A DNA stretch of 59,856 bases from Chrysochromulina tobinii (Eukaryota): the NCBI GenBank assembly GCA_001275005.1, contig JWZX01003346.1, positions 1 through 59,856 of the forward strand, written 5' to 3'. Positions 1 through 59,856 of this stretch are shown in pieces (position 1 is the stretch's first letter; each line of letters opens with the position of its first letter). The position numbers were made by a program, and so were the translations under genes. Under the pieces are notes generated by a model. It was not told the DNA's origin and ran no database searches. It saw only the letters and a list, made by a program, of their open reading frames with translations.

Positions 1-1615
1 GCGCCTCGGCGGGCGCGCCGTCGCGGGCGCCTCGGACGGTCTGCCGAGCGTCGCGAGATTGCGATTCACGGGAGAGAAGCTGCCGTTTCAGCGCCTGATG
101 GACGCGGCGCAGCCCTCACCTGCAACGGCCGCGGCCGCTGCGACCGGGGGCAGCACACCGAGTGGTGCGCCGGGCGCCGTCGCGGGCGACCTCCAGGGGA
201 GTCGTGTCAAGGAGCCGTTGGCGGTGACTGCGGCGCGTCGTTCACAGCCGGTGCTCGATGCCGTCCAGAGCCAGCTGCGCAAGCAACGGGTGTATGTGAC
301 CACCAACAGCGGTACTGTGCTTTCGCTGCGCGCGGGTGCCGACCTGCAGGTCGCCCTCGACGCTCTCAAGCTGCGGGGACTGCCCCATGAGGCAGCTGCC
401 ACGACGGCGCGCGTCAACGGGCGCACGGTACGGCGCGAGTACAAGCTGCCTAGCATGCACGCGCTCACCACGGCGCCCCGCTCTCCCAAATTAGGTACGG
501 CGCGAGTACAAGCTGCGCAACGGAGACGTCCTGATGCCGCTCGCCACGACGGCGCTCAACTCCTACGCCTGGGTAGCGACCGGTAGGACGACGTACGCCT
601 GGGGCGAGGCGGCCGACTGTGAACGTGAATGGGGCGAGGCGGCCGAGGCGCTCGCGGCGGCGCCCACGCCCGTCCCCTATCCATGGAATCTCGTCGGCTC
701 GCGCCGGGCCGAGGACGCCCTCAACTGGCTCCTGGAGGCTGAGAAGAAGCATGGAAGCGTCGCGTCGCTCGCGCTCGCCAACTGGTGCGCGCTCACGACG
801 GCGCGCTCACGACGGCGCGCTCGCTCCTCGGCGAGGGGAACGCCCTGCATACACGTGCTCACCACGGCGCCCGCTCCCCTCTTCCCCACAGGTGCGCACT
901 CTCGCTCCTCGGCGAGGTGAGCCTGGCGGCGGAGCCCCTCTCGAGCCTCTCGCGGCCCCTGCCCTCGATGGCATGGGCACTCCAAGGGGGGGCGGTGGCG
1001 CTTGTCGAGGCTTGGACGTTACACACGGCGACCTCGGCCCTCATCCGCGCCGTGCCGGGCGTCGCTGCGCGGCCGCCCGACGCGACGCCTACCGGCATCG
1101 CCGCGGACGACGCGACGAGTACCGGTACCGGCTCGTCGCCTACGGACGATGCGTGGGCGAGCGTGTCCAGAGATTTTTGGGTGGGCTTCGCTGCGGCCGC
1201 GCCGCCCGTGCCATTGCGCATCGCCGATGCGTGGGAGAAACTTTTGTGCGCTCTCGAGGTCGAGAAGGCGCTCAGCACGGCGCTCGTGGGCTGCTCCTCA
1301 CCGGCCTTTTTAGGTCTCCTTATAGGGCGCGTGGCGATGGTGCTCATCACGGCGCTCGCGCTGCACGCCGATGTGCAGTTCGGCATCCTGCACGACGTCT
1401 TCTCGCGAGGCAACATGCCCCTCACCGCCCGCGAGCGCCGCGCTGAGCGAACCGTCACCCGACCGGGCGCGCTCGCGCCGCCCGCGCCCACGACGGCGCC
1501 GTCGGCGGCGCTCGGCGCCGAGATGGATCTGGAGCGGCTGGCGGCGGAGGAATCCTTTCGTGACTCGCTCGCCTCCGATCTCGTGCTCCAGGACATCCCC
1601 CTCGAGCTCAACTGA
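1..1615 (+). CDS. RelA/SpoT homologue (RSH)-like protein, 3' part with TGS domain; 5' end outside window; exons <1-427, 495-784, 892-1615
   Basis: Removing GT-AG introns 428-494 and 785-891 joins three ORFs in frame. This yields RVYVTTNSGTVLSLRAGA...ARVNGRTVRREYKLRNGDVL, matching the TGS pattern of RelA/SpoT (VYVFTPKG..LP.G...AKVNG..V....L.NGD.V). The catalytic domains are not visible in the window. Confidence 0.7.
428..494 (+). mobile_element. Introner-like intron (core family A), 67 nt, with perfect 23-nt flanking duplication
   Basis: ggtacggcgcgagtacaagctgc occurs at 427-449 and 494-516. The core gcatgcacgcgctcaccacggcgc lies between them. Splicing restores the TGS reading frame. Confidence 0.8.
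785..891 (+). mobile_element. Introner-like intron (core family A), 107 nt
   Basis: The intron 5' part (gtgcgcgctc...ctcgctcctcggcgagg) copies the next exon start (gtgcgcactctcgctcctcggcgagg). It contains the core gcatacacgtgctcaccacggcgc and ends with a pyrimidine tract plus cag. Confidence 0.75.
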
Positions 1616-1660
1616 GATCCGATCTCGTGCTCCAGGACATCCCCCTCGAGCTCAACTGAG
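1574..1660 (+). repeat. Tandem duplication (43 nt x2, period 44) spanning the stop codon
   Basis: tccgatctcgtgctccaggacatccccctcgagctcaactgag at 1574-1616 and 1618-1660. Confidence 0.95.
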
Positions 1661-2235
1661 GGAGTCCAGGGACTGTCAGACGCTGTCAGACCCCCCCCGT
1701 CGCGCCGCCCAGGCTTCGCGCTGTACGATCTTTGTGTGTGATACACAGCGTCTCGCTCTCAGACTCAGTGTACATTTTCTGATTCCAGGCGCTACGTCGC
1801 GTGGCTGCAGACTGTAGTAGCAGCAGTGTATAAACATGCGGAAATACAGACGTGTTATCACACACATCCATTATCTCCAGATCCGCAACTCTAAATCTCG
1901 CTTGGCGTGCGTGCTCGTGGGGCCGTGCGTAACATTCATGGACCCTGAGTGCTGAGAATACAACATCACGAGTGACGAGATCAAACTTCAAAGATGAAGA
2001 TCGAAGATGTTCTTGTGTCTGTCACAGATCACTGTCTGCGCCTTACGCGAGTGTCTCCAGACGGCGGTCGTGCGTCTAGCCAAGAGGACTACAAAACTTG
2101 GCTGCGTAGGTGTGAACAGAGGACCATGAAGGTCGGAGGTTGAACCTCGGTCAAGCTCGCCCTCCCTACCCATGGTGTGTGGAGCCGCGCCGCTCATCAC
2201 GTGTCTGCCTCCTCCCATCTCGAGAAAACGCCACG

Positions 2236-17028: not shown

Positions 17029-19169
17029 ATGTCGAAGTCGTACTTGATGGCAGCGTCCACTCGCGCAGCCGACGCTGACGCTGCTGGAGGTCACTCTGCG
17101 CCGGCCGCGGTGCGCTTTGAGGGCGACGCGGATGGCGCTCTTGCGCGCGCATATGAGTGTGACGGCCAGTCCAAGGCCATGGAGATGAAGTACCCCATGC
17201 ATTGCATGAAGATGTCTGACTTCTTGCAACTCACTATGCTGGAGGCGCACAACGGCCTGGTCGAGCGCGGGCTCGTGGTGCCGCTCAACTTCGACGGTAA
17301 GCATGCAGGCGTGGAAATCCAGTTTGTGTCTCATCAGTGGTTGGGCTACACAGTCGCCGATCCCAACGGCGATCACCTCACGACGATGCAGGCCGCCTTC
17401 CGGATCGCTATCGACGAAGGCAAAGGGCTCTTCAAGAGTCATGAAGACTGGAAAGCTTATGCCGAGGGTATGACAACTACCAACGCGACATCCACAAGTT
17501 TGGTTCAAACGCGGAGAGTGCGTCTCTCGGCACTGGCTCCTCGGCCTGTGAGGCGGGAGCCAGTCCAGAGATGGACGTGGAGAGGCGCCTTGCCCTCAGA
17601 CACGAGACCTTCAAAGCCAACGTAGCGGACAGTTGGGTTTGGATGGACTTTCTGTCTGTGCCGCAGACTGTGGGCCTCTCGGATGTCGCGGCTGTCCAAG
17701 AGGCCATCAGCAAGCAGGCGGATGCCATTCGCTCCATCCCTTCTTACATCCGCCACGCCACCACCTTCTGGATCTGCACGCCGCAGGGCGCCAAGCACGA
17801 GAGCGGCGAGCTGTGCTCGTATGCCACGTGGAGCGCTCGCGGGTGGTGCCGGCTCGAGGAGACCACTATCGCGCTGCTCAACTTGGCGACGCACGCCCGA
17901 CCTATCATGCTCACCGACCCAGTAGGCGCTCGGCCGTTGGCGGTGACCCCGGACAGCGTCGACCGGATGTCAGTCCACGTGCAGCGGCGCAATTCGGTGC
18001 TCACAGGCGCCTTCTCGTGCTGCCGGTTGAAGCACCAGGTGCAAACGCTCAACGGTAACTTCGCACCGATCCCGTGCGACAAGATCATCCTGCGCAAGGT
18101 GCTTGCGGAGGTCTACGTAGAGGGCTTGAGCATCGCGCGCGACCTATGGCAGCGCGACAAGGAGCACGACACACGCGACATAGAAGGGATGGGCACGTTC
18201 TGGTCGAGCATGATGGCCGGCATCACTGGGCAAGATCCGAGTTTTGCGCTCTGGTACTTCCATAGGAGCCTGCGGCAAGCGTATTTCGCCGAGGGCGTCG
18301 ACGAGCCTGACTTTGTGGCGTTGGGCTGGTCGAAGCCGTTCGAGGAGCTCACGGCGGAGGATTGCGAGCACTACTGTGCGCGCTGGGGGATGAAGTGGCG
18401 GCCTGACCACTCTGTGGAGAAGGCGGCGGGATGCTATTGGCCTGCGCAGGTGATTGCATGCTGATTGCAGGTTGATTGCAGGCTGATTGCAGGCTGATTG
18501 CATGATTATTGCATTCTGATTGCAGTTTGATTGCATACTGAGTGCGTGCTGATTGCATGCTGATCGCAGGTGATTGCATGCTGATTGAAGGTTGATTGCA
18601 TGCTGATTGAATGCTGATTGCATGCTGATTGCATGTGGCAGGAGGGCAACTTGCCCATGCTGCGCTACTTTGTGGAGGTGCTCGGAATGGACCCAATGAT
18701 GGCTAATGTGATCGGTGTCTCGACACTGCACTGCGCGGCGCGCCATGGCTTCAACAAGATCATATGTTACCTCGTGGCGAAGGCGGGTGAGCGTGTGGGT
18801 CATGGCACGCCTGAGCTGCGCGCGTGGCTCAATCAGCGCACGAATAGCCTGAAGCTTTCGCCCATCGACGGAGCTGCTGTGTGCGGCCACCCGAGTACCA
18901 TCAAGTTGCTCGCTTCGCTCGGCGCTGATATCCACGCGCGCCGCTCCAACGGTCGTACGCCGCTGCACTCGGCAGCCGCGTATGGGCACGCGGCCTGTGT
19001 GGGTGAGCTGCTAGCGCTCGGCGCGGATCCCGAAGCGCAGGCAGACGACGGTAGCAAGCCTGCCGACCTCGTGACACACTCGTGCTCTCTCTCTGCATGG
19101 CCGACGACACAACATGACGAGTGTCTCGAGCTCCTCGACGCAGCCGTAAGGGAGAAGAAGAAGGCATGA
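17029..19169 (+). CDS. HET (heterokaryon-incompatibility)-like domain plus C-terminal ankyrin repeats
   Basis: HET-like motifs FVSHQWLG, WVWMDFLSVPQ, IPSYIRHA and WSARGWCRLEE, then ankyrin repeats (STLHCAARHG, TPLHSAAAYGH). Intron 18450-18641 joins the domains in frame. A frame change near 17470-17570 is either a further intron (e.g. 17468-17568) or an indel. Confidence 0.7.
18450..18641 (+). repeat. Intron composed almost entirely of ~11-nt TGATTGCATGC repeats
   Basis: gtgattgcatgctgattgcagg...gcatgtggcag. Phase-0 removal joins PAQ|EGNLPM. Confidence 0.85.
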
Positions 19170-20370: not shown

Positions 20371-23049
20371 ATGGCGGCCGCCGCTCCAAACGAGCCGAAC
20401 CTGATCAGAGTGGACGGAGCACCGCCGGGAGGGCCGTCGGCAGCTCTACCTCGCTCTCCTGATGCCGCAGCCGTCGCGCGAAAGCTCAAGCAGGCGATCG
20501 TGCAGTTCATGCATGGCGATTCCGACGAGCGCCTCGTGGCTGCCAGGGCGCTGTACGACACGGCGGGCGTGAGCATCGTCATGTGCAGGCAGCTGCTACA
20601 GGAAGCGGGCGCGGCGCTCGTCGCGGGGCTCGACGAGCAGCTGACCAACGACAAGGCGTTCGTGCTCGTCGTGCTGCTCACGCTCAAGCGGATCGCCGGC
20701 CACCTGACGATGGAGGTGAACGATCTGAGAGTCGCGCCGCCGCTGGTCGCGCTGTTGCGGTCGTCCACAGCGTCACTCCGGCGCCACGCCGCCGCCTTGA
20801 TCGAGCTGCTCTGCGCCGAGGACGAGGCGGCCAAAAGCTTGCTCAACGCGGGCGTCGCTCCCGTGCTCTTGCGGCTCGCCCTCGGCGAGCGTGGTGATGG
20901 CGACGACGGTGGCGGCGGTGACGACGCCGGTAGCGGCGGGCAGGGCGGAGACGCCGATCGCAGCGGCGGCCACGGCCGCCGCCGCCGTGGCTGCAGCAGC
21001 GACGACGGCGCAGGCATCAGCAGCGGTGCCGCCGTGTTATGCGCATGCACGGTGCTATGCCGCCTAGCTGAAGACCGAGACACGCGCTATCAAGTTTCGA
21101 CTGCCTTTGTCGAGCACACGGGCCTCGTGCTCGCGCTCGTGGCGCCTCTCGAGTACGATGCGCCCGCGGAGGCCAAGCAAGCGCAGCAGCAGGTGCTCCG
21201 CGCCATCGCCGCCCTCGGGGTGATAGGAGAGTTCAAATCGTCCCTCGCGGCAGAGGGCAACTTCATAGGCCTGCTGTTCCAGCTGCGTGACTCGGCGATC
21301 GCGGGCGTGCCGGCGCTCGCGCACGCGATCGCGGCACACTGGGATGACGACTTCCTCGGATGGGCCTGGCAGACGTGCGCCTCGTGCAAGCAGGTGCGCA
21401 GGATGGCCACTCTGAGGGCTGACGAAGCTCTGAGGGCTGACGAAGGGCGCTCTTCTTCTCTTAATAGCCTCTCTCTCCTCTCCCCCGCTCCTCATCCTCC
21501 CTCCACCCTCCTCCCCCACCCCGCGCAGGTGGCCGCCGAGCTGATGCTCGACCCCGAGACGCCCATCGGGCCCGCCGACGCCTCGGGCGGCGTCGAGCGC
21601 TACACCGTACAGCTCTTCACGGCCCATCGGATCCTGAGGGAGTTCCTCAAGCAGGCACGTTGATTGCCACTGATGGCCTGCCGTGCATGCAAGTGCTCAC
21701 CACAGCGCTATCGGCTCCCCGTCTGCCAATTGGAAGGCGATTGCGACTGATGACCTACAGTGCATGCACGCGCTCACCACGACGCTCCTCTCTTCCTCAA
21801 ACAGGCCGATGAGGTGACGCATGGCTTGCTGCGCCTGCAGGCACAGCTCGATGAGGGCGTGGCCCTCACCGAGAGGTACGCCGGCGTGCTTCGTCAGCGC
21901 TTCGTCATCGGCTCCGACCCGTCGGACGCGCCGGCAGACCCCGACGCGCCGCTTTCCGCTCCACGCGCCTTCGAGGTGCACAACCGACAGCTGGCGCGCC
22001 AGCTCGGAGACCCGCGGCCCTCGGCATGCAAGTGCTCACTACGGCGCACCCTCGCGTCTCCCCACAGGTGCACAACCGACAGCTGGCGCGCCAGCTCGAG
22101 GCCTCCGCGCAGCAGGTGCGCACAAGCTACCGGCAGCTTCTGCTGCACTGCAGCCTGCTCCTCGACGGCGAGCGGACCGTGCAGCGGGCCGAGGGACACC
22201 TTCGCGAGCTCGACGAGCTCGTTCGCGCAGGGAAGGCGGTCGAAGTGACGTTCCTGTGGAAGCAGCAAGCACACGTCGCGCTGCGCCGGGCGCTCATCGG
22301 CCTTTCGCTTCGTCTTGAGCTCCATGTGCGTGCCCTTCTCGCCCAACGCGAGGGCTCCGGCTCGATGCTCGGGCTCGCGGAGCAGGTGCGTCTCGTCAAT
22401 TTCCTCTGATTGCCTCTGATGGCCTCTGATTGCCTCTGATTGCCACTCTCGATCGTATGGTGGAGCAGGTGCGTCTCGTTCATGGCCTCTTGATTGCCTC
22501 TGCTGATGGCCTCTGCTGATGGCCTCTTCTTGCACGCGATCTTGACCCTCCGGGTCGCGGAGCAGGTGCTCGAGGGGCTTCCGCTGCTTCGGAAGGAGGC
22601 GACGGCACTCGAGGGGATCGCCGACGCCGCCGACCGTCTCAAGAGGCGAGGCCTGGGCGAGGGCGGGGCGGGCATGGAGGGGGAAGCGGCCATCCCTGCC
22701 CCCTCCCCCTCCCCCTCCGCCTCCGCCTCCGCCGCCTCCCTTTCGTTTGCGTCCCGCTCCCGACCGGCGCGTACGCTCACCGGCGTGGCGCACGCAGCCA
22801 GCGCCTCCTCGTTCACAGTCTCGAAGCGCCCCCCGCGCCGTGCCGCCTCCGCATCGCGCCTACTCCACCCAGGCCGCCTCGGTGGTAGCCTCAGTGGTAG
22901 CCTCGGCGGCTGCAGTGGCGGCTGCAGTGGCGGCGTGGCCAAATCGCCGAGCGGCGCGACCGCGAGCGCCGACGCAGCCGCGGCGGGAGCAGCGGCGGCA
23001 GGAGTAGATGCGGCGGCAGGAGCGGCGGCAGCAAGCGCGAAAGGCAGCA

Positions 23050-23086
<37 letters not shown>

Positions 23087-25738
23087 GAGCGGCGGCGGCG
23101 GCGGCGGCGGCGGGAGCTGGCCATCCAGTGGGGGCTACCTGAATCCGATCTCGGGCTCCGAGATCATGCCCAAGACGACGCCGATCTCGGGCTCCGAGAT
23201 CATGCCCAAGACGACGCCGATCTCGGGCTCCGAGATCATGCCCAAGACGACGTCCCCCCGCCATGCCCCCGCGTGGCTCAGCTTGAGTCTGAGCCACCCA
23301 AGCCTCGGTCGTCCACTCACACCCTCGGTGCTCACCTACCGGTCGTTGCCGGCGCGTGAGCAAGCGGAGGTCGCGAGCGAGACGCGACTCGCCCTCGCCA
23401 TGGCAGCGCGGCGCCACGGCTCTGCCAACGTCCTACTCACGGCGCGGTCGGCTGCGGCCGACCGACCGAGCGCCGTACCGAGCGAGGCGGCGCTGCTCCC
23501 CGAGCGCCGTACCGAGCGCACCGACGGCGGCGCGAGTGGCGGCGAGGGCGAGGAGGCCGAGGGCGGTGGCGCTCGGTACGGCGCTGACGGCGAGCTTGGC
23601 GACGACGAGGGCGGTGGCGCTCGGCACGGCGCTCACGTGCGCTTCGAGTCCGACGAGACGAAACCATCGATGACGAAACCATCGATGACGAACCCATCGA
23701 TGACGAAACCATCGATGACGAACCCATCGATGACGAAACCATCGATGACGAAACCATCGATGGCACCACGGCCGTCCCAGGCACCAGCACCGCCGACGAC
23801 GCCCGGTCGACCCTACTCCGCGGGCCTGCTGCGAGCGCCCAACACGGCGCTGTCGAGCGGCCGCCCCACCTCGGCCGCGAGCACGCCCAACACGACGCTC
23901 GGTCGACCCGGCTCGGCCACGTCCACGCGCGCGAGCCTCGCGGGCGTCGTGCTGGGCGCGGGCACGGAGCCGCCGAGCTTCGCGAGCAAGCAGAGGCTCG
24001 CCACGCCCTTCCTCGCGTCCGACCCGCATGAGCGCCGTCGACGACGCCAGATGAGCGCCCCTGGCGAGACTGAGCTGCGTGAGCTCGTGACGAACCCTTC
24101 CAAGCTCGGAGGTCGCGCGAGATTTCTTCGGCTGCAGCAGATCTTCGAGGGCATCGACGAGGACTCGTCGGGCGCGATCTCGCAGCGCGAGCTGCGCACC
24201 TTTCTCGACCGCGCGGGCCTCGAGGTCACCGATCGAGAGCTCACCTCTGATTGCCTCTTGATTACCTCTGATTGCCTCTGATGACCGATGATTGCCTCCC
24301 TCATCAGGTCTCCGATCGGGAGCTCACCTCATGGATCGACAACTCGGCATTCGACAATAACGGCGAGGTCGAGTTTGTCGAGTTCATCGAGGTCATCAAC
24401 ATGCTCAGCCGGCGCGCGCGTGCGTACGAGCGCGAGAAGGCGGTGCGCGAGTACGGCGGCGGCGGTGCGAGCCCGAATGGTGCCGAGCAGTCTCGACAGC
24501 AGGCGGCGGGGGCTGCAGGGCGTGAAGACGCCGACGCCGACGCTGACACCGACGGGGAGGGGGGGGCCGACGACGCCCCCTCCCCGCCTCCCGCCGCCGC
24601 CGCTCGGGCTGGCGATCTCGAGGAGCTCGAGATCGAGACGGTCCTCAATGAGTCCCGCCGCAGCGCCGCGCCGCCGCCGCGCTGTGCCGCGATGGAGAGC
24701 ACGCGCCGCAAGGCGGCTCTCTTGTCTTATTACCTGCCCACGACGCCCTTCCAGCCTATGGGCATCGTCCGCAGCGCCGCGCCGCCGCCTTTGCTCACGG
24801 CGGACGCGCGGGCGGACTCGGCGCACTTCCAGCCTGCCGATGCGGATGACCGGCCAGCGATTCAGATGCACCGGTCGGAGCTCGCTGATCTGTTCCCACA
24901 GGCGGCGCACTACGCCACCGCCCTCGTCATTCACAGCTTCGTCGAGCCCACGGCAGCTGGGGCGACCGGCGGCAAGGCGGGCGGAAAGGGCGGCGACGAC
25001 AGCACGTCCGACGGCGTCCCTCTCATCACCCTATTGCAGCTACAGGCTTGGTCTCGCCTGACCGGCTTCCCCGACCTCTCGCCCCTCTCGGGGCCCCAAT
25101 GGCTGACCGTCCTCCTGCGCCGGATGAGCGTGGTCCCGGGCACCGCCCTCGTACTTGGCCCTGACGGCGCACCCATGCTCACGGGCGTGCGCTGCGCGGC
25201 GCCCGCGGCACGTCTGCCCCCCCTCGCTGGCTGGGATGCGCTACAGCTATTAGCGTGGTTTCGGTGTGCCCGGCTGCTCGATCTGCCCGAGGCATCGCCG
25301 CGCACGCTCGCCCGACTTCCCCTCGATCAGCTGTGGCCGACGCTTGGCAACTGCGTCAGCCAGACGCGCTCGCTCATCGTCGCCAACGGCGGCCGGCTCC
25401 AGCCGCCACCCGCGCCATCAGCGGCGGCCGCGGCCGTGGCGCTCAAGGCGGCGCTCGCTGGGGGAGATCTCGCTGGGGGAGATGGCGAGGCCGGCGTGCC
25501 GTCCGTGGCGCGTGCCGCTGCGCCCGCGACGGCGCCCGGCGCTCGCGCAGCCTCGCGCTACGACCAGGGCGCCCGCGTCGAAGGCTCGGTGCTCCTCGAG
25601 CCTCCGCCGCCGCCACCGCCTTCGCATTTGGTCGCTGCCAAGCTCGCAGGCGCGCGCCACCGGGCGGTCATCAACGCCGCGCCTACGTCTCGCTTGCGGG
25701 CGCGCAACAGCCACATGCTGCGGCGCATCGACTCGTGA
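20371..25738 (+). CDS. Large ARM-repeat/low-complexity/EF-hand protein; exons 20371-21393, 21529-21654, 21805-21975, 22068-22385, 22566-24224, 24308-25738
   Basis: Five phase-0 introns (one GC-AG) chain five ORFs. ARM-like helices lie at the N-terminus. The EF-hand pair DEDSSGAISQRE and DNNGEVEFVEF is joined across the last intron. Confidence 0.7.
21655..21804 (+). mobile_element. GC-AG intron made of two tandem family-A units
   Basis: Units 21655-21736 and 21737-21804 each carry gattgc.actgatg.cct...tgcatgca.g.gctcaccac. The intron end ttcctcaaacag|gc copies the upstream exon end ttcctcaagcag|gc. Confidence 0.75.
21976..22067 (+). mobile_element. Introner-like intron (family A), 92 nt, with perfect 33-nt duplication
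   Basis: aggtgcacaaccgacagctggcgcgccagctcg occurs at 21974-22006 and 22066-22098. Core gcatgcaagtgctcactacggcgc. Confidence 0.85.
22386..22565 (+). mobile_element. Intron made of two tandem TGATTGCCTC-filler units (family B)
   Basis: An internal ggagcag|gtgcgtctcgt at 22462-22479 repeats the donor context. The intron end gggtcgcggagcag|gtgc copies the upstream exon gggctcgcggagcag|gtgc. Confidence 0.75.
23145..23252 (+). repeat. Coding tandem repeat, 36 nt x3 (PISGSEIMPKTT), each unit with an 8-bp hairpin
   Basis: ccgatctcgggctccgagatcatgcccaagacgacg; gatctcgg pairs with ccgagatc. Confidence 0.9.
23657..23761 (+). repeat. Coding tandem repeat, 15 nt x7 (TKPSM)
   Basis: gacgaa(a/c)ccatcgat units. 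Confidence 0.9.
24225..24307 (+). mobile_element. Introner-like intron (family B), 83 nt, with 25-nt duplication (2 mismatches)
   Basis: aggtcaccgatcgagagctcacctc versus aggtctccgatcgggagctcacctc flank a tgattgcctc filler. The intron splits an EF-hand pair. Confidence 0.8.
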
Positions 25739-26069
25739 GATGTGCTAGAGATGTGCGGCCATGCCCGATCGCTACACACATCGTTCGCGAGCGAATCTCT
25801 ATTGTACATGATATGGGCATGAAAGTGGTCGGCTAACGTAGTAGCACGATCGTTAGCCGTCCCGGGTAGGAGAGTAAGGAGGCGAGGAGGTAGTCAATAG
25901 TCAAGACAAATGAGACCGCAGGTGGCTTTCCTTTTTCGAACTTTTGGGGCATGCGTGATGCGAAACCGAAAGTCATTCGACTATCGACCCTTTTTTGTCC
26001 CGGCACGCCCGTCGACTCTCTGAAGAAAAAACGACCTCGTCCTCTCAGTGACACTTCTTGGACCGCGTC

Positions 26070-32051: not shown

Positions 32052-32097
<46 letters not shown>

Positions 32098-36912: not shown

Positions 36913-37515
36913 GTTCGCCGCCGCCCCGAGGAATCGTGACGCCCATCTGCGAATCGTGGCTGCTCCGCGAACCGAATCGTGAACATCAGAATGTACCCAT
37001 GAATGTACTGCTCTGGGTCGGGACCGCACTGGGTGGCGCCGCGCGGGACACGGGGCGCGCGCGCGCGGCGCGCCGGCCCGGCCCTTATAGCTACGAGTTG
37101 GGGGCGCGCGGCGGACCGTGCGTGGTTTTGTGATCCATGATGAATCTTGTACTAGGTCTTTCCATCCTCTTCTGCCCCACTTGAAGTCTTCTTACTACAT
37201 GGAACATGCTATGTATGGAACATGCTTATAGTCTTCCTTGAACATAAATTATCGGGGTCGTAGCTACTACGCTGAGAGGTTTCCGCCGCCGGCTTGCGTG
37301 TTCGGCGCCGGCGTCCGGTCGCGTAGGTCCCGCGCCACCGGCCCCTCAGGCTCAGCGACAGCCGACACGACGCCACACCAAAATGGCCCTTGGTCCGTTG
37401 GTCGCCACGGGTACACGCACCAACTGCCGACATCAAAATTTGGAGTTGCGGGACCTGCTTCGTCTCGCCACTCGCGCGTCTGAGAGCGTCGCTGCGCCGC
37501 GCGAGTCGCGGCTGA

Positions 37516-38714
37516 TCATCGCGACATGAAGCCGCGGCTGACGGACTGAGTCAGATCCGCAAGCGACGAGGGCGAATGGTTGAGGAAGAGGGCGTTCGAC
37601 CTGGATTCCTTGCCAATCGACTGCATCATGTCGAAGTACTGCGTGACAATCATCAGGTCGAGCACTTGCTTTGGGTCAATCCCCTCGATCTCGCGCCCAA
37701 ACGCATTGACGGACTCGCGCAGGCCGCTCATGATGGCCTGACGCTGGCGTGCAAGGCCCACGCCAGCCAGGTACAGGGCCTCGGCGTCCGCCTTGGCGTG
37801 GATCTCGATCGACCTCGCACTCGCTTCGGCATCCTTAATGGCGCGCGTCTTCTTGGCCTCCCCTTCATCGCCCGCGGCCTCTTTGACGCGCCTGGCCTTA
37901 TTGATCTGGTTCATCGCGTTCTTGACCTCGACCGCGGGCTCGATGGCGGTGATGGGTGTGGCAAGGATCTCGTACCCAAACGAGCCGAAGTTCTCCTTGA
38001 GGTTTTCGGCCACCTGCTTCGCAGTCTCATCCTTCTCGAGGAAGACGTTGTCCAGGTCGAGTTTGGGCACGGTTGAGCGCACGACGTCATACACGTACGC
38101 CTGGATCTGGCGGTGGGGATCGGAGAGGCGGTAGTAGGCACTGTGCATCGCCGCCTCCTCCTTTTTGATCTGGTACTGGATGGACACCTGCAAGGCGAGT
38201 GACGATCGGTGGCAGCGCGAGGTAAAGAAGACCTCGGGAAGAGTAGAAGGAGACGCCCGCTTGCGTGCGTGGGGCGCGCGCTTGCGACTGGCTCGCGTGG
38301 CGCCTCTGCCCACTGCCACCTCGTGAGGATCGATAGGGCGCACATGACCGCCGTGCACCGATCACCAAGCGCACCTCGATGTTTGTGAAGACGTTGTCCT
38401 TCGTCTTTGTTTCGCACGTGACTTTGATCTGCTGCAGACGCATCGATACGTGATTGGAGGCCTCGTCGACGCAGCAAATCACAAAACTCAGCCCAGGCTG
38501 CATGATGTATGTAAATGCGCCGCATCGCTCCACCATGCGCACATTGCCCGTCTCAGTGCAAACCGGGTAGCACACCTGGGAAGCAAGTGGTGAGGGGTGG
38601 CGAGGGTGAGCGGCGCGCGGAATGTTGCACCTGAGTGCGCTTCCATGTTGGCTGCATCGCCAGGCACGAGCACAGCGGCCTGCAAGACTGCACGGGGGCA
38701 GCGCTCCTCACCAT
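37516..38714 (-). CDS. SPFH/band-7 HIR-like protein, copy 2; exons 38714-38712 (ATG only, tentative), 38575-38375, 38187-37516
   Basis: CETKTKDNVF, YVYDVVRSTVPKLDLD, GVGLARQRQAI and TQYFDMM. Phase-0 GT-AG introns. Confidence 0.85.
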
Positions 38715-42465: not shown

Positions 42466-45164
42466 TCATGGGTGCCAGGCGTCGCCGGCGCCGCGGAGGC
42501 CGTACTTGAGGCGTAATGCAAGCGACTGCATCAGGCTATCGAAGGCGTCCGGCGCGTGCGCGAGGATAAGCCTCACCTCAAGGGGAAGTGCTTCGCGCCA
42601 CAAGAGGCGCGTCCACACCGCGGCGAGGGCATGCCGCTTGGACATCAGGGCTGTCGTGTTGGCGGCCAGACGGCGCAGGATCATGGGCAGCTGTGGCAGG
42701 TCGCGAGGCTCGAGACGCACGGCGATGGCGTCCCAGTCGAGTAGAAGCCCTTCAAAGGCCTGCAGCACGGGAGGGTAGGCCGAGGCCTCGTCCCGCTGGA
42801 TGAGCACTGGAATGCACCCGAGGGCTGCGCTGTGGAACACGCGCATGCCCCAGCCGGTGCCACTCGGGCACAAGCAGAAGATGGTCTGGAGCATCTCGGC
42901 GTCGAGAGAGACGTACGGCGGAGGCGGCTTGAGGTCCGTCGCACGCAGCTGGAAGCCCTCCTCCTTGTGGAATCGGCGGTAGACCTCCCAGCGCACCCCG
43001 AAGGAGTAGTGGTCGAGGAAGCCGTGCTTCTGACGGCACTTGCGCCCGAGCTCGGCAAGACCGTTCATGTGATCGTAAGTCTGCCAGCAGATGGCGCCGT
43101 GGAAGAAGAGGAGCTTGGTGCGCCCGTGCCATGCCTTGTGGTTCGCGTCGGCGGCGGCGGCGCGCGCGGCGGCGGCTGGGTCGGTGGGGAATTGTCGGTG
43201 GAAGGTGAGGAAGGGCGACTTGGCGACAATGTGGTCGCGCAGCACGCCTGGAATGACGAGGTCGCGCGTGGCGTCGAAGCAACGCTCCGTCGGCACGCCT
43301 CCGAGCCCCGTGACGGCACCCCAATTGCTCAGAAGGATCGAGGCGCGCGTCTGGTCCCAGATCGATCCCCAGGGGTTCGAGCACCCCGCCGCGTCGCGCG
43401 TGTTCGACCAGATGTGATCCGCGCCGCCCGACCTGTTGAAGTATGGCCACACGCTGCGCACATATTGGTGCGCACGCCAGTAGACCTCCGGATTGCCCCA
43501 CGAGCCATGGAAATCCCACACGGGCACGTAGTAAAAGTCCGCACGCGAGGGATCCGTCGTTCGGTGCGCCGAGCGGAGCAGCGAGATGTGCACCGCTTTG
43601 AAGCCCCGATAGTCGGCTGGCCCGTGTGAATAGAAGGCCCATGTCGGCTCGGCCTTGAGTGCCAGGACGTTCATGCGGGCGGGCAGCTCATACACGTACA
43701 CGCACGGGCGCACGCATGTGCCCGCGGCAGCGCCCATGCTAGCAGCGCCGGCGCCGCCTTCAATGCCCGCCTGTGAATGCCCTCGTGTGAATTCGGCGCC
43801 GCCTTCAATGCCGCCGCCGCCTTCCTCGCTGGCTCCGCCGCCGCCGCTGCCTCGTGACGTGAGGCTTGAGGGGATGGTGGGTGGCGCGGCAATTCCCAGG
43901 TGGCCAGCGGGCAGCGCATGCAACGCCTCCGTGCTCGCCCTGAACGGCTCCAGCGAACAGTCGACCCCGTAATAGGGCGGTCGACAGAGGCAAAAGCCAA
44001 AGTCGCACCGGCCGCGGTTGAGGCAATCTGAGACACAAAACCATCTGGGATGCCTCTCGCACGCTGCACCAAAGTAGCCTGGGATGCACTGGCACGTGCC
44101 ACCCTGGCACACACCCCGCCCATTGCACCGGTCGGGGCATTGGTCCAGCGGCGAACCGACGCAATCAATGGTCGCGCCGCTGCCATCGCCTCGGGTCGGA
44201 TGGCGCTCACCTGATCAAGGAGGCCATCAGAGGTCATCCGAGGCTATACGAGGCAATCCGAGGCAAACAGAGGGCTCGGATGGCACGCACCCCTCGAGTG
44301 CTCGCACACAGGCTTGTCACAAAAGAAGGCGGACGAGTCGTTATAGACGCACCAGCCGTGATGGGTCTGCGGGCGTGCGAGCGCAGGCTGCACGTGCAAT
44401 TCGCATTGGGGACCCCATCGGTGGCGTGGACAGTCGCAACGACCCAAATCGGGCAGGCACACGCCCTCGTTTGCGACGCACTCGCGCGGGCACTGTTGGC
44501 GGCCCCAATGCCACGCATTGCCGGTGAGCACTGGGATGATGCGTGTGGCGCCGCCCATGGCGCGCGGCGGCATCGCCACCACCGGCGAGTCGCGCTCATC
44601 CCATCCTGACTGCTGCATGATGGCCAGAAGCTCAGCGTCGCGCTTGGACATGCCGCTCGCGTACCCGACCTTGTTGCCGTGGGCGACAATGGCGACGCCC
44701 CATGAGTCACGCACGTCCGCCGAGGCATCCGGACGATTTGCCGGGTGCGCCGCCATGTACGCGAGGTGCAGCGCGTATGCGGACGGCAGCGGTGAAAGCG
44801 GCTTGAGAGGGCCAACGTCAATGGCCCGAGCTGCACTCGTTGCCACAGCGCCAGCGGCGGCACTGGCGGCGCCCTCGACGATGGTAGCGCTCGTGTTCGT
44901 CGTCGGTTCTTCACGGTTGCGCGCACGCGCTTTTCTCTGCCGCCGCCGCCGCCGCCGTTGCTTCTCCGCCAAGAACCTGTCCTCGAGGTCGATCTTGCAA
45001 GTAGGGCCCGGGCACTGCTGTAGGGCCCGGGCGTGGCGCGCGAGCCGCACGGGCTCTACAGCAACGTGCGGCGGCGGCGCGGGGGACGCGGTGCGGGAGA
45101 ACAAGAGCCCCGCCGCAATCGCGCCGAGAGCGAAGCACAGCAATGTGCTCCTTGCTGAGGACAT
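42466..45164 (-). CDS. Exostosin-family (GT47) glycosyltransferase with EGF-like repeats; exons 45164-44291, 44210-42466
   Basis: N-terminal TM, EGF-like CxCxxGYFGxxC, VYVYELP, RTTDPSRADFYYVP and FCLCPSGTGWG.RVFHSAALGCIPV. Confidence 0.9.
44211..44290 (-). mobile_element. Introner-like intron (family B), 80 nt
   Basis: On the minus strand the start gtgcgtgccatccga resembles the next exon gtgagcgccatccga. Filler ggattgcctc...gatgacctctgatggcctc, ending gatcag. Confidence 0.7.
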
Positions 45165-48595: not shown

Positions 48596-50812
48596 TCAAG
48601 TGCGCAGCAATGAGCCCCCATCTGGCTCCATGCCGGCCCGAATCTCCTCCAGACGGCGGCGCTGTCGCCCCTCGCTGTCGAAGTTGGCCGGCGAGAGCCA
48701 CGCCGAGAGCGCCGCGCCCACTCGAGGCCACTCGGCGTCAAGGATCGAGAACCACGCCGTGTCACGGTTGCGCTGTCGGACGACTGTGGCTTGGCGCGTC
48801 ACGCCTTCGAAGACGAAGCCAAGGCGCAGGGCGGCTGCGCGTGAGCGCACGTGGCGCGCGTTGCACTTCCACTCAACGCGCCGGTAGCCGTTGCTAAAGC
48901 TCCACTGGAGCATGAGGAAGAGCGCCTCGGTCGCGGGCGGCGTGCGAGCCAGTTGCGGCCCGAAGCTCAGATGGCCTATCTCAAGACATCCATGCGCGGC
49001 GGCGATGCGGAGGAAGGCGGCGAGGCCGAGGGCGACGCCGTTCACTTCGAGCGCGAAGAAGAGCGGGTCGGCGCTCGTCGTCTGTGGACCGAGCCATGCG
49101 CCGAGCGCCGCCGGCGAGTCGAACGGACCGTACGAGAGGAATGTCCAGTGCACGTCGCCCGCGCCGGCATAGGCGGCGTGGAGTGCGCTCGCGTGCTCCA
49201 AAGCAAGCGGCACGCATGCCACACAGGCGCCGCGTAGCGTCAGTCGGACCGGCGACGGCGGCGGCTTCCAGTCGGAAGCCAGTTGAGGCCCGATGGGTAT
49301 GCTGACGGCAGGCAGGCCGATGGGCATGCTAACGGCAGCAGAGTCGTGCACTTGCCACACGGGGGCCTGCCAGTTGGTACGCGGAGGCGTCGCGCTCAGC
49401 AGCGGAGCCGTCATGCCGCTCAGGCTGGTCTTCTGTCTGTTGAAGAGTGTGGCGGCCTCGGCAGGCGCCGTTACGGGCGCGCTCGATAATCCCACGCCTT
49501 CACCCACGCCTTTACCAAAGCTTTCACCGATGCCTCCGGCCACGATGCCAAAGTTGCTCGGATCGAGCCATGCACAATAGCAGCGCTCGATGGCGGGCCA
49601 CTCCGGGCGCGTGATGGAGAACACTGCCTGATCGCTCGTGCGACCCTTTAGGACGAACCGTTGGCGGAAGGTGACTTCATACGTAAAGCCGAGTCGCTGC
49701 GCAGCCCGCATGGCGGGCTCATTGTGAGGATCGCACGACCATTCGACACGACGGTAGCCGCACGCGAATGCCTCGCGGATCTGGAGGATCATCGCCTCGG
49801 TGCCCGCGGCGGCGCCTGCAATCCTCGGCGAGATCATGATCTCCGCAATCTCCGCGGTGCCTCCCTCTGGAGCGACGCTTATCAGCGCGCCAAGACCCGC
49901 CGCGGTGCCACTCGCAAGGTCGACGTACCTGATGACGGGGGCACTCAGATAGCATGAGGTGCAATCAGAGGCGATCAATGGCCCGTCGCTCGCAAGGTCG
50001 ACTTACACGCCGAAGTAGGCGCCCGTGCCGGCCTCGAGGCTCGCGAGGTACGCCCACAGCGCCTCGCGACTTGAGAAGCCGCTCTGGAAACTGTACGCCC
50101 AACGGCTGTGGCTTGGATCGTCTTGGAAGGCTGCAAAGAGCTCATCGCAATGCCTGTCTGCCTCGAGAGGCTCGACGCGCACGAATCGGCCGACGTGTGT
50201 CGCGCGGTGCAGCCGCTTTGGTGGCGCCCACAGCGCGTCCGACGCTGCGGTGCACAGGGTGGGCAGGTATTCATCGAGCACCTGGTGGCCGCCATGAGGC
50301 ACGGCGTGCAGGACCACATCCGCCATGCCGTCCACGTACAGCTGCGAGAGCCCGAAGCTCCTGACAGGGTCGTCGCGCGCCCAAAAGAGCACTGCCGGCA
50401 GCCGCGCGATCCTGGCGATCAAAGAAGTGTCCGTGAGCGACGGCGCAACCAGCACCAGCATGCGCACCATCATCGGGTGAGCGGCAGCAAATGCCACGGC
50501 CTCACCGCCGCCCCATGACTTGCCCATGATGACTGCGCTTGTGGCACCCGCATGCTTGTAGATGCCCAGGAGTAGCTTCTCCGTGTCCACGCTTGCCATG
50601 AAGCCGGGCTTCGTGGCGGCATTCGAGTGCAGGTTAGGCAGCAGCACGCGCAGACCCACTGTGGCCAACTCACGGGCAGCTGGCTCCCACTCTGTGATGA
50701 CGTCTAGGTTGGCGCTCTTGCCCTGTATGCACAGGACGAGAGGCGCCCCGGCGCAGCCAAAGTCTAGCGCGTCCACGGGACCGAGGTGCGTCGCGAGCTG
50801 CACGGCCGCCAT
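48596..50812 (-). CDS. Alpha/beta-hydrolase fused to two RimJ/RimL-type GNAT acetyltransferase domains; exons 50812-50007, 49928-48596
   Basis: Triad GKSWGG, DD and GGH. Two GNAT repeats (GYRRVEWSCDPHNEPA and GYRRVEWKCNARH...RNRDTAWFSILDAEW). Phase-2 intron 50006-49929 joins the ORFs within the first GNAT. Confidence 0.8.
49929..50006 (-). mobile_element. Introner-like intron (family B), 78 nt, with 18-nt duplication (1 mismatch)
   Basis: Intron start gtaagtcgaccttgcgag versus exon start gtacgtcgaccttgcgag. Filler tgatcgcctctgattgcacctc, ending catcag. Confidence 0.8.
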
Positions 50813-54435: not shown

Positions 54436-54471
<36 letters not shown>

Positions 54472-55104
54472 AACGATGACTTCTGGCAGGAAATGGCAGC
54501 TCGCGTCTCTGACGCCTCCGAGCTACTCTTAGCGCGCCAAGAGCCAGTGCAGCCACTTGCCAAAAAAAGCCGTGCGCTGCCGCCGCTTCAGCCGTCCTCA
54601 TCGCCGCCGGCACGCGCCTCGGCAGGCACCTCGGCCCCGCCACTGGCTCACTACCGCGCGTCGCAGCCGCCGACCCTCGGCTCTCAGCCCATCGGAGCGC
54701 TGACGCTGCGAGCGGCGCCGCCGGCACGCGCCTCGGCAGGCACCTCGGCCCCGCCACTGGCTCACTACCGCGCGTCGCAGCCGCCGACCCTCGGCTCTCA
54801 GCCCATCGGAGCGCTGACGCTGCGAGCGGCGCCCGCGTCCGAGGAGGACTGGCAGCTGTCGGACGAGGCGCTGGCAAGCTTGCCAGACGTGGTGCCAATA
54901 ACCTCTCAGCCCATCGGAGCGCTGACGCTGCGAGCGGCGCCCGCGTCCGAGGAGGACTGGCAGCTGTCGGACGAGGCGCTGGCAAGCTTGCCAGACGTGG
55001 TGCCAATAACCGCCGCGCCACCTCCGCTCGGTACGGCGCCCAACAACGAAGATGATTGGCTTTTCTGGCATCTGCCTGTCGAGGCGCTGGCAAGCTCGCC
55101 ATGA
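53368..55104 (+). CDS. DEDDh 3'-5' exonuclease-like protein with Cys-rich N-terminus and repetitive acidic tail; probable intron 53835-53903
   Basis: ExoI-like STDVET, ExoII-like IVHHGGTE and ExoIII-like HTAAGDA. In-frame gtgcgt...ggcag intron. ED repeat and internal duplications. Confidence 0.6.
54602..55011 (+). repeat. Two overlapping coding tandem duplications (114 nt x2 and 108 nt x2)
   Basis: Near-perfect copies starting at 54602/54716 and at 54795/54903. Confidence 0.95.
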
Positions 55105-55367
55105 TGCGAGAGGCGCGCCGATCGGACGGCCAGAGAAAGCTCGAGGAAGACGAGGCAGAGAGCGGAGCGGAGCAAAGCGGGTAGGGACTCGCTCGCCATG
55201 ATGCGAGAGGCGCGCCGATCGGACGGCCAGAGAAAGCTCGAGGAAGACGAGGCAGAGAGCGGAGCGGAGCAAAGCGGGTAGGGACTCGGGAGGCGGGCCG
55301 GATCAGATCTGTCCTCTGTCCTCTGTCCTATGTCCTCTGTCCTCTGTCCTCTGTCCTCTGTCCTCTG
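55094..55367 (+). repeat. 97-nt tandem duplication spanning the stop codon, followed by (TCTGTCC)n
   Basis: Copies at 55094 and 55191. About 8 heptamers at 55308-55367. Confidence 0.95.
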
Positions 55368-57456: not shown

Positions 57457-57582
57457 TTTAATAATTGCGGAATTATTCACTTTGTTATGGAAAGAGAAGG
57501 GGCGCATGTACCGCGTCTCGTTTCGCGCCGTGTTGACAATGATTGACTTGCCTTGACAGTCTGACTCGTTGGCGCCAACAAA

Positions 57583-58200
57583 ATGGACGATGACACCGAC
57601 ACGGTGGTGCTGCGCGTGCAGTCGGAGAATCGGCTGCGCGGCGTGCCGGATGCAGCGCCCATCCTGTCCGATGGAACGCTCGCCGGTTCCGTGCTCGAAC
57701 TCGCGCAGACCCTCACCAAGAACAACGCAGTCCTCAAGGAGCGCACCGACGAGTGGTCGAGGCTGAACAAGATCCTCACCGAGTTCAAGCAGCACCTCGC
57801 GTGGCAGCAGCAACGCAAGCAGCAGCTGCAGCGCAATCTGGAGCGCCTGTACAACGAGACCTCCTGGCTCAGCAACAAGAGCGAAGAGATCAGGCAGGAC
57901 ACGCATGTGCTCGGGCATGAGCTGCGGCAGGCGGTGGGCGAGCTGAACAAGGTCAAGGCGCTGCGTGCGGCACGCCAGCAGGACCTGACGACGATTGAGG
58001 CCGAGCTCAAGCTCGAGACCAATGCGCACGCCGCCGTCAGCCACCTCTGCTCGCAGGCCAACAAGGCCTTGCTAGCGCACACGCGCGAGCGCGACGCCTG
58101 GCGAGCCGAGGCGGACCGCGCGCAGCAGGAGAGCAAGAAGCTCAAGGACCGGCTCGAGGAGATGGCGTACAAGGTCAACGGCCTCACAACCGCGCTGTAG
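57583..58200 (+). CDS. Coiled-coil protein
   Basis: Heptad-rich ORF with strong GC3 bias. Confidence 0.7.
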   Translation: MDDDTDTVVLRVQSENRLRGVPDAAPILSDGTLAGSVLELAQTLTKNNAVLKERTDEWSRLNKILTEFKQHLAWQQQRKQQLQRNLERLYNETSWLSNKSEEIRQDTHVLGHELRQAVGELNKVKALRAARQQDLTTIEAELKLETNAHAAVSHLCSQANKALLAHTRERDAWRAEADRAQQESKKLKDRLEEMAYKVNGLTTAL

Positions 58201-58411
58201 ACGCGCGCACCGGGCAGCCAGCGAGCGAGCCCGCCGCTGCCATGAGAGTCGGCGTGCCAGCGGCGAGACCGCGTCTGCGTCCGGTCCGCCGGCCCCCCAA
58301 ACCACCCGTTCTCCTCACCTGTGCGTGTCAACACTGTATAGAATCAACCCATGCAATTTTCGTTGAATACTTAGATTATCATCACAGTGTGGGGGCTCGT
58401 CAGCATGGCGC

Positions 58412-59856
58412 TCAGCCGCACTCGTCAAGGAAGACGAGCTGGTCGACGAGAGGCCAGAGGCGCAGCTTCGACTCGCCCAGGATGCTGAGCAGCTCGGAGC
58501 GCATGCGCTCGTCACAGCGCTCGTCGTCGTCCTCGCCCTCGGCCTCCACGCCCTCTTCGTCGCGCCGTCGCAGGTACGCATACACACGCTCAAACGTGGC
58601 GACGCCCAACTCCCGCCGGCAAGCTTCACGCAGAGCGGCGGCCCTCTCGGCTCCGGCAAGGCCGTGAGGCTCAGCGACGTCGTGGGCGTCGGCGTGGGCG
58701 TCGGGGCCGTCGCCGCCCTCGCCGTTGTAGTAGTCATAGTCGGGGCCTTCGTACGCATCGTCGCCCTCGTACTCCTCGTACTCATCGTACCCTGCCGCCG
58801 CCTCACCGTACCCTTTGACGTCCCCTACGATAGCGAGCTGCGGCGCGGCCGGCAGCCACGCGGCATCGTCGGTCAGGGCACGAAGGGTGCCACCTGGTAC
58901 TACGCGCTGCGCCGCGAGTGCCACTCCGAGCGCCGTGTCGAGCGCGGAGAGCTGCGCGTCGTCGAGGGTACCCGAATGGTACTCGTACAGCGCCGTGTCG
59001 AGCGCGCTCTCGAGCAGCGCGTCGGCGTCGGCGGCGGCGGCGGCGTCAGCGTGGTCCCCGATGCTGCCGCTGCCGCTGCCGCCGCTGCCGGCCGAGCTCA
59101 TGTACCTTGACGGAGGGAGAGTCAAGCGCGCCATGGTGAGCACTTGCATGCAAGGCAGGTCATCAGTGTGGCAATCAACGTACCTTGACGGAGGGAGAGT
59201 CTCGCGCGCCATGGTGAGCACTTGCATGCAAGGCAGGTCATCAGTGTGGCAATCAACGTACCTTGACGGAGGGAGAGTCTCGCGCAGCGTGCTCAGCACG
59301 ACGCTCGACACGACAGGCTCGCAAGCAATGAAGCCCTCCACCGCCGCAGCGGCTTTGCCAGCAGTGCCGGCGGAGGCGGCGGGCGGGGGGCGTCGCTTCG
59401 AGTGGCTCGTAGCGACCAGGGTGGCGCGGAGGAGCTGAATGTTGAGCTCACACGCCCCAAGCGTCTCCTCGCACTCCTCGAGCTGCCGCTCAACCTCGGC
59501 ATCTAAAGAAGGCCGCGGAAGGAGCGCTGTGCTGAGCGCTGTGCTGAGCGCTGTGCTGGAGGCATGTTGCACGGCGGCGAGCTCGCGCGCGAATTCGTCA
59601 ATCCCCATCGGCGGCGGCGGCGGCAGCACGTCGGCGCCGTCGAGGCCCTCGGTACCGTCGGCGGTGGCGGCGAGAGGTTCCGCTGACTTGTCGCGGGCGG
59701 GCGTGATGGGCGGAGATTCGTCACGGAGGGCAGCGAGGGTATGGCTGAGGAGCTCGTCCGCGCTCTTCGACTTGAGGCGCTCCTCGAGCGACTCCTCGGA
59801 CGAGAGGGACGCATGCAGCGCGACGGCGTCGTAGTATGCAGCCTCCTCCGCCAGCA
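58412..59856 (-). CDS. 3' part of a protein with a NEK1/NEK11-like C-terminal helical domain (5' end outside window)
   Basis: LREACRRELGVATFERVYAYLR...LLSILGESKLRLWPLVDQLVFLD resembles the C-terminus of NIMA-related kinases. The kinase domain is not seen. Confidence 0.55.
   Translation of the reverse strand, partial: LAEEAAYYDAVALHASLSSEESLEERLKSKSADELLSHTLAALRDESPPITPARDKSAEPLAATADGTEGLDGADVLPPPPPMGIDEFARELAAVQHASSTALSTALSTALLPRPSLDAEVERQLEECEETLGACELNIQLLRATLVATSHSKRRPPPAASAGTAGKAAAAVEGFIACEPVVSSVVLSTLRETLPPSRYVDCHTDDLPCMQVLTMARETLPPSRYVDCHTDDLPCMQVLTMARLTLPPSRYMSSAGSGGSGSGSIGDHADAAAAADADALLESALDTALYEYHSGTLDDAQLSALDTALGVALAAQRVVPGGTLRALTDDAAWLPAAPQLAIVGDVKGYGEAAAGYDEYEEYEGDDAYEGPDYDYYNGEGGDGPDAHADAHDVAEPHGLAGAERAAALREACRRELGVATFERVYAYLRRRDEEGVEAEGEDDDERCDERMRSELLSILGESKLRLWPLVDQLVFLDECG
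59106..59261 (-). mobile_element. Tandem dimer of a 78-nt family-A intron unit
   Basis: Minus strand: 2 x gtacgttgattgccacactgatgacctgccttgcatgcaagtgctcaccatggcgc plus a copy of the upstream exon end gactctccctccgtcaag. Confidence 0.8.

Follow-up and report, generated by a model that had tools for sequence, protein, structure and literature searches.

Many young introns in this haptophyte-like alga combine a long duplicate of the adjacent exon with a short module carrying splice signals, and they likely arose by copy-and-rejoin repair, without a transposon. Sequence comparisons suggest that introns already present, often close by, were the source of the module, a finding that we present as new. 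The origin of new intron sequence has long been a question, and gain on the scale of genomes is at present attributed to transposons. In this alga, recipients can be matched to donors, empty alleles are segregating, and the hallmarks of transposons are absent.

The 59,856-nt stretch of DNA that we analysed (the window) holds 7 copies of a core, GCATGCA(A/C)G(T/C)GCTCAC(C)ACGGCGC, compared with 0.56 expected from shuffles, and these copies are located at five intron sites. The sequence-only reading had assigned this core to five introns in three unrelated genes. The core is present at every one of those sites; as a small correction, introns 1 and 2 share one gene and introns 3 and 4 another. 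All five introns start with GT or GC and end with AG. It had also been proposed that the inserted cassette gives the branch point and the duplicated exon gives GT or AG, and the two geometries that we distinguished bear this out. In type A, the branch point, pyrimidine tract, and AG come from the module and the GT from the exon copy; in type B, the GT and branch point come from the module and the AG from the exon copy.

428..494, forward strand: intron 1, type A; a 23-nt copy of the downstream exon, then the core (453-476), a pyrimidine tract, and AG.
785..891, forward strand: intron 2, type A; its exon copy is degenerate and contains a 14-nt tandem expansion; core at 847-870.
21655..21804, forward strand: intron 3, type B, GC-AG; cores at 21685-21708 and 21762-21785; 5' site from the module.
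21976..22067, forward strand: intron 4, type A; 33-nt exact repeat 21974-22006/22066-22098; core at 22024-22047.
59106..59261, reverse strand: intron 5 (predicted), type B, 156 nt; two 78-nt units; cores at 59206-59229 and 59128-59151.
20371..25740, forward strand: gene 3, host of introns 3 and 4; 1575 codons once five introns are removed.

The claim that a 14-33 nt direct repeat of exon flanks each intron held for all five, and most sites beyond the window have a flanking repeat too. The repeat of intron 1 (427-449 = 494-516) is exact over 23 nt, and that of intron 2 (820-836/901-917) is exact over 17 nt, with 7 nt at the cut in addition. For intron 3, a 14-nt repeat of the upstream exon with one mismatch (21643-21656/21793-21806) is the source of the AG. 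Intron 5 has a 22-nt upstream-exon repeat, and the intron itself is a 2.4-copy array of the 78-nt unit. Plain tandem duplications are common within the window. Keeping any of introns 1, 2, 3, or 4 truncates the frame, and intron 3 contains in-frame stops: the gene with introns 1 and 2 (gene 1) has 479 codons when spliced and 194 and 283 with an intron kept, compared with 1575 and 385 and 530, respectively, for gene 3. The reading frame of intron 5 stays open when the intron is retained, so the frame does not force its splicing.

A metagenome scan yielded 309 distinct core copies. A flanking direct repeat was detected at 98/129 single-core sites against 6/758 swapped controls, placing junction repeats above background, as in break-repair gain. 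The repeats measured 12-45 nt in the main class (median 26-32, depending on the method), with repeats shorter than 12 nt uncountable at our detection threshold; the two copies are 95% identical at the median, and 20/68 are perfect. A module of at least 24 nt separates the exon copies, and the splice sites do not both come from the duplicated exon. Similarity between loci reaches one intron end only, the other end being the exon copy. Such long repeats would also permit exact loss and tandem expansion via recombination.

The ends of the inserts differ between classes. Type A inserts finish exactly at AG, those of types B and C often end 0-8 nt past the core, and no fixed 3' end or tail is seen. 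At the other end, 17/68 type A inserts start no more than 1 nt from where the core begins, truncation within the core is rare (4/105), and 45,443 of about 47,000 cross-locus pairs have fewer than 5 nt in common upstream of the core. The earlier expectation of long, variable duplications lacking terminal inverted repeats was confirmed: terminal matches reached at most 5/8 in 68 inserts (mode 2) and at most 6/8 in whole introns. A longer autonomous element carrying the core did not emerge, as different loci have no common flank beyond about 35 nt except for one 53-nt pair (L102/L107), and several donors are neighbouring introns. A 5-bp hairpin surrounds the branch motif with 4/5 pairs kept, one pair being broken in 41/309 copies; folding of 5 stretches gave z values of -0.71 to 0.75 against shuffles, revealing no unusually stable RNA structure. 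Rfam returned no match near the gathering score for 6 loci and thus no head derived from a structural RNA. Prokaryote genomes gave 0 core matches. The single match among viral contigs lies at the extreme end of a contig with phage-like ORFs that is probably chimeric.

The predicted sense and gene bias of the core was likewise observed. Type A copies were called sense in 62/68 cases, and coding sequence adjoins 94/98 sites compared with 471/600, copies being depleted outside coding regions. Neighbour pairs are co-oriented in 88/93 cases. Type C strand calls stood at 14/25 with a classifier that was correct in 11/14 tests and carry no weight; type C copies are co-oriented with their neighbours in 18/18.

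Evidence of recent gain came from an empty and a filled site and from relatives, the presence/absence polymorphism that had been suggested as a check. In the allele pair L011/L122, the 81-nt intron consists of a 34-nt duplication and a 47-nt module; L011 has neither, and the module is identical to the one in the following intron, some 480 nt downstream. When five such introns are taken out of a DHX37 gene, the conserved protein is gap-free at 5/5 junctions. Three of them are absent from a 91%-identical genomic ORF of a relative, and five more distant homologous ORFs contain no translated core and are continuous across the junctions that they cover. A bare 24-nt core insert in DHX37 adds 8 residues, and apparently non-splicing inserts are in frame in 9/12 cases (P = 0.004). 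Where relatives share a site, their introns are built differently, and each exon copy matches the variants of its own exon (L059/L079; DHX37 junction 235). Identical loci recur across independent assemblies.

RNA did not corroborate the junctions. Among the RNA joints listed, which are dominated by repeat noise, none was a core-intron splice joint, and two low-depth contigs retain intron sequence: one, at depth 3, has the last 24 nt of intron 4 unspliced, and another, at depth 3.3, spans an intron of a second module family (24225..24307) unspliced. Short-read RNA contigs break at the junction repeats.

Several loci point to the donor of the module. L113, L017, L067, and L061 each include exon-derived sequence that belongs to a neighbouring intron at a distance of 0.4-2.5 kb, with microhomologies of 3-11 nt at the joins; L017 resembles a whole intron moved inside one gene. 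More generally, same-strand pairs within 2.5 kb have a similarity of 2.19 compared with -0.24, above all 300 permutations (maximum 0.48), and this falls to background past 6 kb. Neighbours on opposite strands show no such likeness (P = 0.35, n = 31). The 5' joints match the family flank at 1.89 of 4 positions against 1.34 at random exon positions (n = 18, P = 0.005), with at least 1 nt in common before the cut in 57/67 sites. Core mismatch counts overall are no lower in near pairs (P = 0.53), and we saw no clear class of captured local DNA other than introns. For pairs with an intergenic-like gap between them, as called by a crude gap detector, mean similarity was 2.35, against 2.3 for pairs lacking one. 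Only 29/43 loci score above the null mean, which leaves many without a local or recognisable donor. The local likeness could also stem from later gene conversion among existing copies.

The best model in our view, at somewhat better than even chances, is template switching at microhomologies in the course of break repair or replication. A DNA end in an exon would use a microhomology of 2-11 nt to jump to an existing intron as template, in many cases one close by on the same strand, copy the donor's branch-point module, and rejoin the exon 12-45 nt back, giving exon copy, module, and exon. Because the AG that ends a donor is followed by GT, a join made at a common (A)GGT would by itself open the duplication with a splice donor. 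The template might be DNA or nascent pre-mRNA. A surviving intron could become a fresh donor, a chain reaction for which no master element would be needed, and copies unable to splice would persist mainly if in frame. We take polymerase-theta-type end joining or fork template switching to be the candidate enzyme route. The pile-up of starts at the core is unexplained by sequence-blind copying and hints at a specific recognition step. Our more tentative proposal, which we hold possible but would not yet bet on, is a dedicated transcript-coupled pathway in which nascent pre-mRNA serves as the repair template, the 24-nt core acts as recognition or entry signal, and (A)GGT rejoining gives a correct intron by construction, allowing genome-wide self-propagation at thousands of sites without a transposon.

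The same pile-up would suit target-primed reverse transcription, by which a non-LTR retroelement enzyme would copy introns or pre-mRNA, recognising the core hairpin and favouring the tethered transcript. Agreeing with it are the long duplications of varying length, the 5' ends that vary and show microhomology, the exact stop of type A at AG, the mostly kept hairpin, and a same-strand bias with unlike opposite-strand neighbours. We nevertheless regard it as unlikely: the 3' end varies, types B and C stopping after the core; one hairpin pair is broken in some copies, and folding is no better than in shuffles; a long common 5' body is absent; copies are depleted outside coding regions; and no RT was found among the 6/7 motif-bearing ORFs scanned (about 0.7 Mb covered). 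Less probable still is a two-step origin, with plain exon tandem duplication first and gene conversion from a nearby intron bringing the module later, so that local likeness would reflect conversion and not birth. The window's richness in plain tandem duplications and the differently built introns at sites shared by relatives fit this order, but the L011 allele lacks duplication and module alike. Type A lengths also fall about equally into the three frames (24/26/18), and an intermediate of 12-45 nt that lacked a branch point would therefore mostly shift the frame.

Lariats that reverse-splice into RNA or R-loop DNA, the route suggested for introner-like elements of Micromonas and fungi, would account for the sense and gene bias, for the splice site at one insert end, and for L017. 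This model predicts clean insertion of whole introns (in the available part of PMC4540971); the partial copies, long duplications, and bare-core inserts disfavour it, and we hold it very improbable. We find it barely credible that these loci are artefacts of assembly, or ancient conserved introns sharing an extended splice consensus, despite the lack of a direct RNA joint and the contig breaks at repeats, since independent assemblies repeat identical loci, the L011/L122 alleles differ by exactly one unit, the repeat copies are nearly identical, and the five distant ORFs run through the covered junctions without a translated core.

Several known kinds of intron gain resemble these introns in part; comparisons here draw on the available parts of the cited papers. 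Daphnia-type break-repair gain gives 4-12 bp junction repeats from mostly unknown, one-off sources (PMC4202315). It has in common with our introns an exon direct repeat at the junction, recent polymorphic gains, and possible parallel gains at one site, but ours have 12-45 nt repeats (shorter ones being uncountable) and a recurring splice module traceable to other introns. Tandem genomic duplication at AGGT-like sites also yields precise introns from duplicated exon (PMC3443670), but in that route the duplication provides the two splice sites and no foreign sequence enters, whereas here a module lies between. Fungal same-gene intron duplications, whole or segmental, are rare (82/1610 multi-copy introns; PMC3609843). 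They too give similar introns inside one gene, whereas our copies are partial, abundant, and accompanied by long duplications. In the hypothesis of Roy and Irimia, as cited in PMC3609843, template switching during reverse transcription creates the intron copy, likewise a product of a template switch.

Introners also are high-copy intron-creating sequences of aquatic protists that carry one splice site and take one from the duplication. Their cited TSDs are 3-9 bp, and family members are alike at both intron ends, as the 2022 pipeline requires; a Chrysochromulina sp. family has a 4-bp TSD and no TIR (Gozashti 2022, PMC9860276; 2025, PMC12130899). In contrast to DNA-transposon introners, our introns have no terminal inverted repeats, duplications of 12-45 nt, and one-ended similarity. 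As one end of each intron is a site-specific exon copy, that pipeline would likely miss the core family, and standard introner searches would likely overlook such introns. Introner-like elements of the reverse-splicing model share the coding-strand and genic location but differ in seamless whole-intron insertion and unusually stable RNA structure, both absent here. Non-LTR retroposons (SINE/LINE tail) share a variable TSD and a variable 5' end with microhomology, in contrast to our lack of a fixed 3' end or tail and of a structural-RNA head. The anatomy described was not found in the literature searched, and the C. tobin and Emiliania EST papers, in the parts available, do not mention such introns.

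The process seems genome-scale, extrapolating from 5 sites in 60 kb and from core-selected loci, where 430 kb hold 55 additional clusters. The host alga is apparently in culture, making rates, template, and enzyme directly testable. A generic intron scan gave 283 compared with 53-192 in dinucleotide controls; as frame shifts and microsatellites contaminate these controls, we draw no support from the comparison. Within the window, a second module family has the same anatomy as the core family, a module and an exon duplication.

24225..24307, forward strand: second-family intron, 10-nt repeat module; 23-nt downstream-exon duplication; interrupts an EF-hand-like pair.
22386..22565, forward strand: second-family intron array; exon repeats present.
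49929..50006, reverse strand: second-family intron; 18-nt downstream-exon duplication.
18450..18641, forward strand: 11-nt-repeat intron with a related module, in the window sequence.
44211..44290, reverse strand: second-family intron; degenerate exon duplication, boundaries read by eye.

A homologue search with exon 1 of gene 3 returned solely an intron-unaware gene call. The gene 3 product has a weak ARM-repeat match, and its EF-hand-like pair lies near 24225.

Seven copies of the 24-nt core lie in the window, where 0.56 would be expected, and the five introns that the sequence-only reading had grouped by it all run from GT or GC to AG, each with the flanking direct exon repeat that this reading had described. 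Retention of introns 1–4 truncates the frame. Intron 5 (59106–59261, minus strand) leaves the frame open and, if retained, could contribute a pair of 26-residue repeats to the protein. The window is eukaryotic, with a GC content of 64%. Among the homologues of one of its genes, the clearly named one belongs to Prymnesium parvum (59% identity), and no near-identical named protein was found; a haptophyte source is therefore likely.

Metagenome contigs were scanned for the core; at least 138 stretches matched, and 131 loci (715 kb) were used, coming from repeated assemblies of apparently one culture and, for 47 loci, from other metagenome assemblies (grouped by contig name). Among the matches listed, these loci hold at least 309 core copies once context duplicates are removed; the first AG lies 13–23 nt 3' of the core in 223 of the 309, and 125 share an identical 10-nt acceptor context. 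No core was found in prokaryote genomes. One contig from a viral collection (L132, 4495–4554) has the core and acceptor at its extreme end alongside phage-like ORFs and is probably a chimera.

After exclusion of 180 of the 309 copies, which lie in arrays or close to locus ends, 129 single-core sites were analyzed. A flanking direct repeat, counted at a score of at least 12, was present at 98 of the 129 compared with 6 of 758 swapped controls, at similar rates in the two source groups (67/91 and 31/38). The repeat-bearing inserts, in which the module is the short splice-signal segment containing the core, were classified as follows.

Type A (68 of 98): GT-initial copy of the downstream exon, then the module up to AG
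Type B (5 of 98): module that starts at GT and includes the core, followed by an AG-terminal copy of the upstream exon
Unclassified (25 of 98): includes several type A inserts in degenerate form

Type A repeats span 12–45 nt with a median identity of 95% (20/68 perfect), and the inserts contain no terminal inverted repeats, bearing out the proposal of long, variable duplications without such termini. The longest 5' form common to loci starts at a GT ∼30 nt upstream of the core, and beyond it no longer flank is shared between different loci, one pair excepted. Folding of five stretches revealed nothing unusual, and in six loci no Rfam family came near its gathering score. At L018 11761 and L036 18075, inserts of 18–19 nt with a branch-point-like motif lie between 24–32-nt exon repeats and may represent a third module family of minimal size.

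The anticipated bias of the core toward genes and the sense strand was recovered. A codon model called 62 of 68 type A inserts sense and found coding flanks at 94 of 98 repeat-bearing sites versus 471 of 600 positions drawn at random (P = 6e-6), or 119 of 129 over all sites. Neighboring cores 150–1500 nt apart share orientation in 88 of 93 pairs. Inserts without an evident acceptor are in frame in 9 of 12 cases (P = 0.004), and a few of them may still be introns.

Removal of five core introns from L015, four of which have lengths not divisible by three, yields a 1261-residue DHX37 that is gap-free at 5/5 junctions against fungal, animal, and oomycete orthologues. At a non-core intron in gene 3 (20371–25740, plus strand), two RNA contigs depart from the genomic sequence at the 5' splice site, as expected from splicing. 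The RNA joints listed added no confirmation for core introns; one contig (depth 3) contains the last 24 nt of window intron 4, and another (depth 3.3) traverses a second-family intron unspliced. Young introns may be spliced incompletely.

That second family ends in a 10-nt-repeat module and shows the same exon duplication as the core introns, indicating that the process is not bound to one sequence. A motif-free scan returned 59 second-family cases, 69 core cases, and 86 others, with similar repeat lengths.

Intron gain here is real, recent, and abundant, and the predicted presence/absence polymorphism among relatives was observed. L122 and L011 (18 differences in 1047 aligned bases) differ by an extra 81 nt in L122, composed of a 34-nt duplication and a 47-nt module; the next intron, ∼480 nt downstream, has the identical module as read in L011. 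Because exact loss between the repeats would also produce this pair, it leaves the direction of change undecided. P0003, a protein 91% identical to that of L015, starts with a translated core intron, which marks it as a reading of genomic DNA. It spans four L015 intron sites, three of them empty and the fourth occupied by a core intron of different build. P0003 also lacks an 8-residue DHX37 insertion encoded by a bare 24-nt core kept in an L015 exon (near 2847, minus strand), such retention being a route to new protein sequence. Several units differ between the orthologous stretches L059 and L079, which presumably encode an ornithine-decarboxylase-like protein. Both have a core intron at one same site, each intronic copy following its own exon's variants, reflecting either parallel gain or ongoing homogenization. 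At L030 1543–1660, a 94-nt intron unit stands in two tandem copies, with one copy in the 99.5%-identical L072.

Modules resemble those nearby. Derived core alleles are common to 74 of 189 informative same-strand pairs 200–2500 nt apart versus 4672 of 24,609 between loci, and longer upstream flanks to 26 of 278 near same-strand pairs versus 718 of 46,112; total core mismatches do not differ between same-strand pairs at 200–2500 nt and between-locus pairs. In a permutation test, the likeness of near same-strand pairs was 2.19 versus −0.24 (maximum 0.48 over 300 rounds), with 29 of 43 loci above the null mean and the signal tapering off by 6 kb. Once arrays were collapsed into 222 clusters, same-strand pairs with no gap between them kept their likeness (n = 73, P = 1e-4), those separated by an intergenic-like gap showed less of it (n = 77, P = 0.097), and opposite-strand pairs showed none (n = 31, P = 0.35). 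Within-locus variant sharing was also seen by eye in the second family (L011, L036, L048, and L064). In four cases, chosen by eye out of 24 listed pairs, the recipient carries exon-derived sequence of another intron's site, which polarizes the copying.

L113: donor 0.4 kb downstream, microhomology of 6 and 5 nt
L017: donor 1.2 kb downstream
L061: donor 1.9 kb downstream
L067: donor 2.5 kb upstream, microhomology of 5 nt

Joint microhomology is seen in bulk as well. We lean toward the view that two template switches at microhomologies, in one event, make these introns, which would account for the duplication, the partial copying, the capture of exon fragments, and the bias toward nearby copies. 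Polymerase-theta or fork-switching mechanics may underlie such a model. Blind copying does not explain why 17 of 68 type A inserts begin within 1 nt of the first core base, nor why truncated cores are rare (4/105), and these observations keep alive a recognition-based, reverse transcriptase-driven route, which we regard as rather unlikely. Exon duplication followed by conversion fits the data less well and is improbable, and reverse splicing, also a poorer fit, is very improbable.

The gain process behaves as a hybrid of break-repair gain and intron copying, and the introns lack defining features of the known introner classes. In the portions covered of the literature on intron gain and haptophytes (PMC9860276, PMC8469720, PMC2784329, PMC4580454, PMC3020277, PMC4202315, PMC3443670, PMC11282704, and PMC4540971) and on same-gene intron duplication (PMC3609843), a scope outside which most subscription papers fall, we found no description of the exon-copy-plus-module anatomy. 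According to the parts seen of a 2025 introner survey (PMC12130899), 5% of categorized introners are non-LTR-derived and ∼72% are uncategorized; related families may therefore stand in its supplements.

Many perfect tandem duplications of 36–114 nt occur in the window (54602–55288, 23145–23252, and 1574–1660), which suggests a broadly duplication-prone genome. The window also holds a convergent paralogue pair at 35721–36912 (plus strand) and 37440–38580 (minus strand), which by eye we take to be stomatin-like and whose introns differ.
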